Shown here piece by piece: positions 54,001-57,000 of a DNA stretch of 64,000 bases. The DNA is taken from NCBI RefSeq assembly GCF_056712565.1, contig NZ_CM160072.1. One strand, written 5' to 3'. Every line of letters begins with the position of its first letter. Positions within the stretch are counted from its first letter, which is position 1. A program made the position numbers.

Positions 54001-57000
54001 CAGAGTCCCTGAAGTGACCTCCGGCAGGGCACTGTCTCAGGCACTCTGTGATAACCCGAACGGTCGTCTCCGGACTGACGGTTGAATTTTCAGCGTTGTT
54101 TTTTTAATGTAAAAAACCGGTTACGGGTAAGGCTGTGAGGAGGGAGTGATGGTGATACGCAAAAAGAAGTGCAGGGACTGTGGAAACGCGATTACTCATA
54201 ATACAGTGTGTTGCCCGTATTGTGGTTCTGTCGACCCCTTCGGCTATTACCGGAATACAGACCGTATCGTTACCATACTGCTGGCACTGATTATTGTGGT
54301 CCTGCTGACTACTGTCAGCGTCAGTGTGTATATACTGTGTAGCTGGTGAGATAACGGTTCATGTATCCCCTGAGCTGACAGTGTACCGGGTATATTAAGC
54401 GTAACCGACAGGTTCTCCTTCATACCATATTAAATTTTTCCAGGTATTGCCGCTGCCTTATTTCGTCCCATACAGGAAAACTCGTCTGGGTTTCTGACAA
54501 ATACGCGAAACTCACAGCCCCTCAATATCAACCACACGCCGTAAGCCGGTAATACCTGAAAATCAGTCTATTACCGCCCGCGCCTCCGTTACCGAACGCT
54601 CAGGTGACAAGACTGAAGCCAGCACGCACTCGTAAAATTTGCGGTCAGTTCTGCCAGCCGGTTGTCAACGGCAGAGTTAAAGGCTTCCAGCTCCGCAAGG
54701 GTAAGTTTATAACGCGTGTGGGAATTCACTTTTCCCGCGTCTCCTGACGTATTACGGGCTGCCACTTACCTGGTGTCCCGCAATACAGCCTTAGTGTTCC
54801 GTTATCGGGGATCCGGACGCACCGCAACAACCGGGGAAGTATTTCTGGTTAGAGCAGTGTCAAGAGGGATTTCTCAGCCCCTCACTCACCGGCTCAGTCT
54901 CAGGGCAGGAGCATTAATACGCTCAGTTCATGTCTTATACAGGAATGGGCATAGGGGGAGCTGGCGTGTCACTGCTGATTTTACGCATCAGCGTTCATGT
55001 ATTTGCACTCTGATACAGAATGCTTCACAGCGCTCTGTTACCGGAGAGATTTACTCTCTTAGGTTATTCTGGCAAATCCTTTACGTTACTCTCTGATGAC
55101 TTCTTATATTTATAATACCAATCAGACAACCTTATCCCATCGGTGATATCAGTCTCCTGCTCGCCAGGAACGGGCTGACTCACTGTAACCACCTCCGAAA
55201 ACAACTCTGCAATTATCAGAACGCCTGCTTCTCTCCCTGTCCTCACGAAAACTATCCCCTCTTTATCGCGCGTGCGTGCGGAAGCATCTTTTCGCACCCC
55301 CGTTACTTTATTCGTACCCCTTATAATGGGGTGTTAGCCAGCCAGACCCGGCATGATTACTGCCCCCAGTCGTCCATGATCCGGGGGGTGATGTCACCGG
55401 GTCTGGTGGGGCGCTGGTAACCGCTAATAGGGGTCAGGTCAGGCACTTTTGCCGGGACCGTCTGTAACGTGGATGCCGGTACCTGCTCCCCGTGGTTATC
55501 TGGTTAACCCATATACAAGGGAGACAGAATGACCGAATCCAGCGATTACGAATCCGTCCAGGTCTTTATCGGCGTTGATGTCGGTAAAGATACGCATCAC
55601 GCTGTAGCCATTAATCGTTCAGGTAAACGCCTGTTCGATAAAGCATTACCCAACGACGAAAACAAACTCAGGTCGCTAATATCTGACCTGAAACAACATG
55701 GTCAGATACTGCTGGTTGTTGATCAGCCAGCTACCATCGGTGCGTTACCTGTCGCCGTTGCCCGCTCAGAAGGAGTCCTTGTCGGATACCTCCCTGGACT
55801 GGCCATGCGCCGCATAGCCGACTTACACGCCGGTGAAGCTAAAACTGATGCTCGTGACGCTGCCATCATTGCCGAAGCTGCCCGTACCCTGCCTCACGCG
55901 CTACGCACGCTGAAACTGGCTGACGAGCAAATCGCCGAACTCTCCATGCTCTGCGGCTTCGATGATGATCTTGCCGCACAGACAACGCAGGCCAGCAACC
56001 GTATCCGCGGCCTTCTGACCCAGATACATCCGGCACTGGAGCGCGTTCTCGGTCCGAGACTTGATCACCCGGCGGTACTCGATCTTCTCCAGCGATATCC
56101 CTCACCAGAAAAACTCGCTTCGCTGGGTGAGAAGAAGCTGGCAGCCCAGCTCTGCAAACTTGCGCCTCGTCTGGGTAAACGCCTTGCAGCAGACATAGCT
56201 CAGGCACTGGCCGAACAAACCGTCGTCGTTCCCGGCACGAATGCCGCTGCCGTAGTACTGCCACGTCTGGCACTCCAGCTCATCACGCTGCGTAAGCAAA
56301 GAGACGAGGTGGCGCTTGCGGTAGAACAGCGAGTTCTTGCTCACCCTCTTTACCCGGTCCTGACCAGTATGCCCGGAGTCGGTGTCAGGACCGCAGCCAG
56401 ACTCCTCACCGAGGTCGCCTGCCGCGCCTTCGCCTCTGTCGCACATCTCGCTGCTTATGCTGGCCTTGCGCCGGTAACTCGGCGATCCGGCTCGTCAATA
56501 CGCGGTGAGCATCCCTCGCGACGGGGTAATAAAGCTCTCAAACGGGCGTTGTTCCTGTCGGCCTTCGCCGCGCTCAGGGATCCGCTCTCCAGGGCTTACT
56601 ACACCCGCAAAATGAGTCAGGGAAAACGACACAATCAGGCGCTTATCGCCCTGGCGAGACGACGCTGCGACGTTCTGTTCGCCATGATGCGCGACGGGAC
56701 TTTTTATACCCCGCAGGCGTCATAACATGCTTGACAACTTAATAGGGGCACCCCCCGGGATTCCGCTACGGCTCTGCCATCGCAATCCCCCCGTTTATCT
56801 CCGGACAGCCAGATTCCCGATTATTTTTTACGTTTCTCCCCGGTTGTTATGCCGGTGAAGGTGGCGCGCTGTTTTCATGACCACACCGGCTGGTTTAACA
56901 ACATCCGGAGGAACATTCTCATGGCTACCCCAGTTTCGCTGATGGATGACCAGATGGTCGACATGGCGTTTATCACTCAACTGACCGGCTTAACCGATAA

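Follow-up and report, generated by a model that had tools for sequence, protein, structure and literature searches.

The DNA considered here, hereafter the window, is a stretch of 64,000 nucleotides (nt) of contig NZ_CM160072.1, from NCBI RefSeq assembly GCF_056712565.1. Judged from its sequence, the gene at 55529-56725 (+) and the insert that surrounds it are an intact copy of ISEc20, an already catalogued insertion sequence (IS) of Escherichia coli (E. coli) and an ordinary mobile element. RefSeq names the gene 'IS110-like element ISEc20 family transposase' (WP_001296203.1), and 'ISEc20 family transposase' is the annotation in 30 of the 30 listed records that hold the locus at 100% identity. 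The stretch, which had been flagged in an earlier note made from the sequence, is 100% identical in many E. coli of phylogroup B2, including CFT073, UTI89, Nissle 1917 and 536, and ISEc20 copies elsewhere in E. coli are 99.5-99.8% identical to the copy in the window. The insertion point is a hypervariable poly-C tract about 170 bp upstream of an annotated alpA-like gene, in a genomic island of extraintestinal pathogenic E. coli (ExPEC). The 228-nt left end of the element appears to have the anatomy of a bridge (guide) RNA of the IS110 group, and this predicted RNA appears to aim ISEc20 at runs of C. The element and its gene comprise the following parts.

55301-56750 (+), 1,450 bp: inserted DNA of ISEc20, C-GTTAC...ATAGGGGCA, delimited by independent copies and empty sites
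55517-55523 (+): Shine-Dalgarno-like AAGGGAG before the ATG, read from sequence
55529-56725 (+): transposase gene, an intact open reading frame (ORF) of 398 amino acids (aa)

The transposase and its homologues

The transposase has two full-length Pfam domains, DEDD_Tnp_IS110 (PF01548, 166 bits, E 6.8e-49) and Transposase_20 (PF02371, 76 bits, E 2.9e-21), and it scores 236 bits against NCBIfam NF033542, 'IS110 family RNA-guided transposase', for which the cutoff is 140. Its residues D17, D65, D107, D110 and S320 align to the catalytic residues D11, E60, D102, D105 and S241 of IS621. The protein can be described as having the domain composition of the IS110 family, with a DEDD RuvC-like N-terminal domain and a C-terminal Transposase_20 domain that includes the catalytic Ser. 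ISEc20 belongs to the IS110 group of this family, in the clade of long transposases around IS110 itself. As in that group, and not as in the IS1111 group, the left end is long and the right end is short, there are no long subterminal inverted repeats, and the predicted RNA lies upstream of the transposase.

A protein-seeded scan of one genome per species gave 80 loci with 72-81% amino-acid identity to the transposase. They are found mostly in Burkholderiales (Burkholderia, Paraburkholderia, Duganella, Cupriavidus and others) and in Actinobacteria (Microbacterium, Cryobacterium, Arthrobacter, Leucobacter and Pseudoclavibacter), the exceptions being one metagenome-assembled genome (MAG) of Enterobacterales, at 93%, and a few MAGs classed only as Proteobacteria or Gammaproteobacteria. 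The nucleotide identity of these homologues is 67-73% and extends through both ends of the element; several of their contigs have a total length of 1,456-1,464 bp, which is the size of the element. The homologous loci served both as a covariation set and as a collection of many independent insertion sites. The relatives outside Enterobacterales (L009-L088) sit in high-GC Burkholderiales and Actinobacteria, and their guide segments are nearly identical to those of ISEc20. Taken together, the GC contrast and the near-identical guides point to a recent spread across phyla.

Limits of the element

The limits were determined by searching 5,426 complete genomes of E. coli with 55250-56850 as the query. 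The five independent copies found in unrelated contexts share query bases from ~48-50 to ~1505-1510, equivalent to about 55298-56757 of the window. The contexts of the other ISEc20 copies are focB, the alpha-2-macroglobulin gene yfaS, the fadL-yfdF spacer, a site downstream of hemW, and another island. In many genomes, such as those of strains PE15 and EBJ001, the site is empty and the outer flanks are directly joined, both being collinear with the window. The left junction reads ...TTTTCGCA-CCCCC-GTTACTTT..., the right junction reads ...TTAATAGGGGCA-CCCCCC-GGGATTCC..., and the empty site of PE15 is TTTTCGCAA-C11-GGGATTCC. The boundaries 55301 and 56750 follow from the direct reading of the junctions of independent copies and of the empty sites, and one C is assignable unambiguously to neither side.

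The left end begins 228 bp before the ATG and the right end covers the 25 bp (56726-56750) after the stop codon. The two ends, CGTTAC... and ...ATAGGGGCA, are not inverted repeats, in agreement with the lack of classical terminal inverted repeats in the IS110 family. At three loci there is no target-site duplication, the difference between the occupied site and the modal empty site being the element alone, with C-run lengths that are polymorphic. The GC content of ISEc20 is 57.3%, compared with a window mean of 49.9%.

These limits revise part of what the earlier note had proposed. The DEDD recombinase that it placed at 55529-56725 is confirmed by the intact ORF and its domains, as is its clear difference from the other IS110-family gene of the window, ISEc45, which phmmer relates to it only at E 1e-8. 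The inverted repeats reported around 55350-55420 are real and form the outer stem of an RNA domain, 55337-55412, inside the element, and the gap of about 190 bp given before the alpA-like gene is close to the ~195 bp that separate the stop codon from the annotated start. Comparison with other copies and with empty sites, as the note had advised, was run and gave 55301-56750, so that an element of about 2.5 kb (54350-56850) is replaced by one of 1,450 bp. Of the roughly 1 kb of GC-rich non-coding 5' sequence ascribed to the element, only 228 bp belong to it; the remainder, 54350-55300, has 49.6% GC and holds an annotated pseudogene and a hypothetical coding sequence. The correction also means that the upstream kilobase is unfit for guide-RNA mining.

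Conserved scaffold of the predicted left-end RNA

Sixty-four distinct left ends of homologues were aligned, a consensus was obtained with RNAalifold, and the helices were checked by hand. The predicted RNA has the following parts.

55316-55332 (+): 5' hairpin ACCCC-UUAUAAU-GGGGU, from the minimum free energy (MFE) fold, with compensatory changes in four of its five pairs
55337-55412 (+): proposed target-binding-loop domain, composed of an outer stem, an internal loop and a small inner hairpin, from the consensus fold
55369-55380 (+): inner hairpin of the target loop, GUC-GUCCAU-GAU, conserved and without covariation
55413-55486 (+): proposed donor-binding-loop domain, composed of an outer stem, an internal loop and an inner hairpin at 55437-55459

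The outer helix of the target domain is 98.4% paired across the 64 sequences and has 7 compensatory pairs. The outer helix of the donor domain is 95.6% paired, also with 7 compensatory pairs, and the inner helices of this domain have 4. When the structure is restricted to the scaffold helices, 93.9% of its cells are paired and 22 pairs show compensatory change. It comprises 215 compensatory cells, compared with 65.9 +/- 8.6 in shuffled alignments, none of which reached 215 in 500, and with 16-47 in slid controls. The pairing of guide to guide that comes from energy folding has a single compensatory cell, against a shuffle mean of 2.1, and hence no covariation. The energy-fold state, in which the guide strands are paired together, was rejected as the functional state because its pairs do not covary, and a constrained fold in which the guides were forced open gave odd long-range pairing and was not used. 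The strands of the loops are conserved as sequence, as guide segments would be. The left end has, after a 5' hairpin, two internal loops within conserved stem-loop domains, which is the arrangement of a bridge RNA.

Proposed donor and target guide segments

The segments of the two loops that match donor or target DNA, together with the donor segments themselves, are listed here.

55301-55306 (+): right donor segment CGTTAC, the first bases of the left end, complementary to GUAACG at 55464-55469
56742-56750 (+): left donor segment ATAGGGG with the donor core CA, at the right terminus
55425-55433 (+): left donor guide UAAUAGGGG, same sense as the right-end terminus TAATAGGGG (56740-56748)
55464-55473 (+): right donor guide GUAACGUG (55464-55471), followed by GA, possible handshake bases
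55362-55368 (+): candidate left target guide GCCCCCA (C5 at 55363-55367, then A or U)
55383-55390 (+): candidate right target guide GGGGGGUG

The 5' strand of the donor loop reads like the left donor, and its 3' strand like the reverse complement of the right donor, as in the donor loop of a bridge RNA. The 7-mer of the 5' strand, which is ATAGGGG, ATAGGGA or ATAGAGG in the homologues, always equals the right end of its own element and covaries with it at two positions. The GGGA class is found in Duganella and, separately, in Pseudoclavibacter and Herbiconiux, while the GAGG class is found in Arthrobacter, and the 7-mer and the right end change together. On the other side, CGTTAC is nearly invariant in the 64 homologues, with five of its six positions invariant and one GCTAC variant (L078). 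The guide GUAACGUG is a perfect complement of CACGTTAC, the ends joined with one C; GTAACGTG is invariant in 63 of the 64 homologues and the remaining one, L088, has GCAACGTG. Both donor-guide words occur together in 4e-5 of shuffled left ends.

In the target loop, C5 is essentially invariant in the 64 homologues and reads in the sense of the C-run target; no covariation accompanies its pairing with the G-run. The word GGGGGGTG is present in 55 of the 64, and in the other nine the G tract differs in length or in one base. G6 is complementary to the six conserved Cs that follow the right end (45-51 of 51 junctions), as UG is to the donor core CA. The C-run consensus is matched by both C5 and G6, but a match to a homopolymer is weaker evidence, and the two tracts occur together in 2% of shuffles.

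Insertion sites and the number of Cs contributed

Junctions with a recognisable end could be counted at 63 left and 51 right ends of the homologues. Base composition at these junctions, and the corresponding target-derived positions in the window, are as follows.

Left -1, just before GTTAC: C in 63/63
Left -2: C in 57, T in 5, G in 1 and A in 0 (n = 63)
Left -3: C in 63/63
Left -4: C in 59/63
Left -5: C in 34/63; positions further out are at background
Right +1 to +6, after ...GGGGCA: C in 45-51 of 51
Right +7: C in 21/51, the background level
55297-55300 (+): target-derived Cs of the left junction, composed of the left target and the target core CC at 55299-55300
56751-56756 (+): target-derived C6 of the right junction, the right target

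The junction consensus is C-C-C/T on the left and C6 on the right, and all six E. coli sites of ISEc20 are in C-runs, as sequence-specific insertion would have it. The fadL-yfdF spacer has C9 in K-12 and in most strains, and 4 + 6 Cs when occupied. In yfaS, the C9 of the closest in-frame relative is replaced by 3 Cs on the left and by GGGGCC + 7 Cs on the right. In focB, an 11-nt CCCCTCCCCCC tract of K-12 corresponds to 6 + 6 in the occupied state. In all three comparisons of occupied and empty sites, the occupied site has exactly one C more than GTTAC...GGGGCA accounts for. From this, the ends once joined are expected to read ATAGGGGCA-C-GTTAC, one C being contributed by the element. The homologues agree, since position -2 varies, and so is derived from the target, while position -1 never varies. 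A CC core with 2-4 Cs contributed by the element was also considered and was dropped, since the same comparisons and the variability at -2 indicate a single C. No contig with the circle junction was found in two metagenome scans, one with the ISEc20 pattern and one with a Burkholderia-type pattern.

Some of the homologues have unusual right ends. In L034 (2715-2745) and L065 (2448-2478), the right end ...ATAGGGGCA runs straight into exactly CGTTAC, beyond which the DNA is unrelated, while the left junctions are normal C-runs; a tandem remnant could explain this, as could insertion at a site that the donor guide reads. Both loci also agree with a single C between the ends. L065, from Microbacterium, also has about 390 bp of extra DNA inside the right end (2075-2450), between two CTTGA(C) motifs, which may be a passenger segment. 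The right termini of L009, L014, L028, L041 and L077 are eroded to ATAGG, ATAGGG (L009) or ATAG, directly followed by a long C-run, and the CA of the right-end core is changed to CC in L007 and L017. The eroded termini and the changes from CA to CC suggest shifted or imprecise crossovers beside the G4/C-run.

A proposed promoter at the junction of the ends

Two hexamers at opposite ends of the element could form a promoter when the ends are joined.

56731-56736 (+): TTGACA, a -35 box in the right end that points out of the element
55304-55309 (+): TACTTT, the -10-like hexamer of the proposed junction promoter, 3/6 matches, read from sequence

With the ends joined by one C, TTGACA is followed by 17 nt and then by TACTTT. 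The motif (C)TTGA, mostly as CTTGAC, is conserved in the recognisable right ends of the homologues. Those homologues that have TACTAT have a spacing of 18 nt, and their junction promoter passes the promoter scan in 16 of 45 cases. A scan of 55100-56900 found no complete sigma-70-like site in the integrated state. From its placement we infer that TTGACA would give a promoter, and expression, only in the circular form.

Proposed mechanism

We consider it likely that this ISEc20 is intact and mobile, that its left end encodes a bridge RNA with poly-C targeting, and that it acts as IS621 does. The limits of the element, the intact catalytic residues, the covarying scaffold of the left end and the matches of the loops to donor and target DNA are observed directly; the steps of the mechanism are drawn by analogy with IS621. 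The element would leave as a circle, or be copied into one, with its ends joined as ...TTGACA-N12-CA-CGT-TACTTT..., and the predicted circle junction is ...AATAGGGGCA-C-GTTACTTT. This junction would create the sigma-70 promoter that is absent from the integrated copy, and the promoter would drive a left-end RNA of ~170-210 nt, carrying the two internal loops, and the transposase mRNA. In the donor loop, GUAACG-UG would pair with the top strand of CA-CGTTAC at the left end. The target loop would bind a run of ~9 Cs, its C5 pairing with the bottom strand and its G6(UG) with the top strand. The DEDD/Ser transposase would then cut the top strands 3' of the 2-nt core and exchange them; a cut of the top strand 3' of the core is seen in the structures of IS621 (Hiraizumi et al. 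2024).

The core dinucleotide differs between donor and target. The donor core is CA, and the natural target core, read at 63 left junctions, is CC (57), CT (5) or CG (1). The right junction has CA in 51 of ~57 recognisable ends, and GGGGCC or GGGACC in two (L007 and L017). The left junction thus keeps the target core (CC) and the right junction the donor core (CA), which is what would be expected if the top strand is cut 3' of the core and decides the outcome; the natural junctions fit the scheme because products determined by the top strand would give CC on the left and CA on the right. In a bridge RNA system, one core dinucleotide would be shared by donor, target and the four guides. This is not the case here, and the second core position of the left guides varies. 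The core difference is a departure in detail, since the left donor guide of IS621 is also mismatched at this position. It is possible that the target is read in another register, in which the CC core is read by the last two Cs of the left guide. A mismatched core followed by segregation of the heteroduplex was rejected; it predicts A at left -2 or -3, and A is never seen there.

A further reading, which we put forward tentatively and hold to be rather doubtful, is that in the clade around IS110 (ISEc20, ISSfl4 and the relatives in Burkholderiales and Actinobacteria) the bridge RNA would be hard-wired for a C9 target with a deliberate core mismatch. Behind it are the CA donor core against the CC target core, both top-strand guides being pre-set for the donor core, and more than 60 insertions with exactly the pattern of the top strand only. 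If it holds, these insertions would be natural evidence, at the scale of populations, for integration dominated by the top strand, which a preprint proposes for another IS110 element (Sun 2025). The clade would also be a naturally asymmetric and possibly irreversible bridge system, and a universal poly-C target would help to explain its spread across phyla.

Evidence against the model and alternative explanations

Several observations weigh against the model of a mobile element with an RNA directed at poly-C. The TACTTT of ISEc20, with 3/6 matches, fails the strict promoter scan. The left end has a modest MFE z-score of -2.1. Rfam 15 gave no relevant match, either at the gathering threshold over the whole window or at E <= 10 over 54350-56900, apart from chance hits to microRNA and small RNA (sRNA) families, a null that shows only that the library holds no such family. 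The target guides are near-invariant across the family, so no covariation of guide and target is available for the target. Both top-strand guides end in UG, yet a CA core occurs in 0 of 63 natural targets, and the register of the target loop is uncertain for this reason. The left donor guide of ISEc20 reads AUAGGGG-UC and not -CA. Finally, the single contributed C relies on poly-C tracts that vary in length between strains, which makes each comparison weak when taken alone; the focB tract, at 4, 6, 8 or 11 nt, is polymorphic enough for this locus to give weak support.

The copy in the window could be a fixed relic, structurally intact and no longer mobile in its lineage, with RNA features that were inherited and have no current function. 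The presence of the same insertion at 100% identity in many B2 strains (CFT073, UTI89, Nissle, 536) implies that this copy is old, and no promoter was detected in the integrated state. We regard this explanation as unlikely, because the ORF, the catalytic residues, both termini and all of the guide segments are intact, and the copies at different chromosomal sites of other E. coli, 99.5-99.8% identical, imply recent movement of this type of element. Up to 10 places per genome match the query, a number that includes matches to the flanking DNA in the query.

Quite improbable, in our view, is an explanation in which the structured left end is only a cis-regulatory leader that acts on the translation or stability of the transposase mRNA, and the protein itself chooses the poly-C target. 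In its favour, the MFE fold allows C5 to pair with G6 and neither tract ever varies, which keeps the pairing of RNA and target putative, and on the left flank there is little specificity beyond one or two bases. This pairing of C5 with G6 shows no covariation, though, while the scaffold helices all covary. The 7-mer of the second loop tracks its own right end through two independent substitutions, and the 8-mer is an exact complement of the joined ends, whereas nothing would make a translational leader mirror the termini. Within the family, experiments on IS621 and ISEc21 showed that the RNA is required.

A guide RNA in the 3' flank, as in IS1111-group elements, or an element that spans the whole of 54350-56850, would find room in the ~195 bp between the stop codon and alpA but is hardly credible, since the element ends 25 bp after the stop codon, 54350-55300 and 56751-57250 are contiguous in IS-free genomes, and the other ISEc20 copies share none of the flanking DNA. 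The earlier note had left it open which flank holds the guide RNA and the termini: the 5' flank has a structure like that of a bridge RNA, and the 3' flank contributes only 25 bp to the element. Its refutation, flanks that resemble unrelated genes and lack a structured RNA, applies to 54350-55300 and 56751-56850 and not to 55301-55528, for which folding and covariation, though not the Rfam scan, gave a positive result.

Comparison with known IS110 elements

ISEc20 is a known element of a known RNA-guided kind, to which the present analysis adds modest new details, a guide map and an asymmetry of the cores. In Supplementary Table 5 of Durrant et al. (2024), the row 'ISSfl4 LE IS110 ISEc20;ISSfl4' gives a predicted bridge RNA in the left end and the IS110 group; this is the same element as the copy in the window, without any difference at the level of the element. 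The literature searched, where mentions of ISEc20 are incidental, gave no account of its guide assignment, of the poly-C target or of the difference between the CA and CC cores.

In the bridge RNA of IS621, the left guides read like the top strand, the right guides are complementary to it, and both overlap the 2-nt core (Durrant et al. 2024). IS621, whose bridge RNA is 177 nt long, resembles ISEc20 in its recombinase, which is of the DEDD + Ser type, and in the unequal length of its ends, the left one being long and the right one short. The -35 box of IS621 is likewise carried by the right end, and its -10 box, like the -10-like hexamer of ISEc20, lies where the left end begins, with nearly the same geometry around the core as read from sequence. 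In the RNA of IS621 and in the one predicted for ISEc20, a 5' hairpin precedes two stem-loop domains, each with an internal loop. The 5' strand of a loop has the same sense as the left half-site and its 3' strand is complementary to the right half-site, an arrangement that for the target loop of ISEc20 is a proposal. Both left donor guides are imperfect at the second core position (in IS621, ACAGUAU-CA against donor CT). However, the proteins have only 24-35% local identity; that of ISEc20 has 398 aa, with a large insertion between the domains, compared with 326 aa in IS621, and the second acidic residue is D in ISEc20 and E in IS621. The target of ISEc20 is a homopolymer, so its two target guides are complementary to each other, unlike those of IS621. 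Its right target guide is long (6 + 2) and the specificity for the left flank is weak, a relation that is reversed in IS621 (9 + 4). With CA in the donor and CC in the natural target, the cores of ISEc20 differ, while IS621 has CT in both.

For ISEc21, the upstream non-coding region, described as a seekRNA, is required for circle formation and for transposition (Siddiquee et al. 2024). Like ISEc20, ISEc21 is of the IS110 type and has an upstream non-coding region and no target duplication, and its junction promoter corresponds to the one proposed for ISEc20. It differs in belonging to another clade, with transposases of 345-385 aa, and in having as its target a conserved codon region of IS3 transposases instead of a homopolymer. 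The 'IS110' subgroup of 395-455 aa, to which ISEc20 belongs, was described in the same work, and ISEc21 was the element tested. Within the window, ISEc45 (44552-45712, -; RefSeq name) is assigned to the same NCBIfam NF033542 and is only distantly related.

ISEc20 adds one more natural example of a bridge recombinase, from the long-transposase IS110 subgroup, with a predicted guide map of donor ATAGGGG-CA-CGTTAC and of a target of about C3 followed by C6. Its junctions and those of its relatives form a natural dataset with different donor and target cores, which bears on the question of whether the top strand alone decides integration.

Flanking island DNA and other features of the window

The segment 54350-55300, whose GC content is practically that of the window, is island backbone unrelated to ISEc20. 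It is collinear over its full length, at 96%, with an IS-free empty-site genome, and the collinearity continues through 56751-57250 at 98.6%; the two flanks are contiguous in IS-free genomes, with 96-98.6% identity to PE15 (L002) and 90-97% to EBJ001 (L003). The annotated features next to the element are these.

54589-54732 (-): Hha/YmoA pseudogene, annotated
55064-55297 (-): hypothetical coding sequence (CDS) WP_001224230.1, RefSeq
56921-57127: alpA, its annotated start ~195 bp from the transposase stop codon

WP_001224230.1 begins with a GTG (55295-55297) that is formed right at the boundary of the IS; in the empty-site genome, this reading frame crosses the insertion point, continues for 100 aa and carries no annotation. 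The CDS is probably a truncated or spurious ORF, its start codon being a product of the insertion. Upstream of alpA, the poly-C tract, present in the window as 55297-55301 and 56751-56756, is hypervariable among the empty sites of E. coli. For the same two flanks, record spans of 145-159 bp are seen; PE15 has C11, and the tract of EBJ001 is interrupted. The length of the tract would shift the frames of the long ORFs that, in the empty-site genome, run through it on either strand. The only other C/G homopolymers of at least 7 in the window are the C7 runs at 50998-51004 and 52448-52454; they are unoccupied and are potential weak targets of ISEc20.

The surroundings (52415-53985 and 56921-57127) are typical of a CP4-57-like island backbone, with two DUF7828/zinc-ribbon genes, a YagK/YfjJ 'inovirus Gp2 family' gene, the Hha remnant and alpA. 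Downstream, the island module is further broken by ISEc10 and IS100. The region of ISEc45 matches strains of the UTI89/NU14 type and not CFT073. Elsewhere in the window, isrN (Rfam RF01396), an Hfq-binding sRNA, has a full-length match at 27239-27379 (-), with a score of 113.6 bits.

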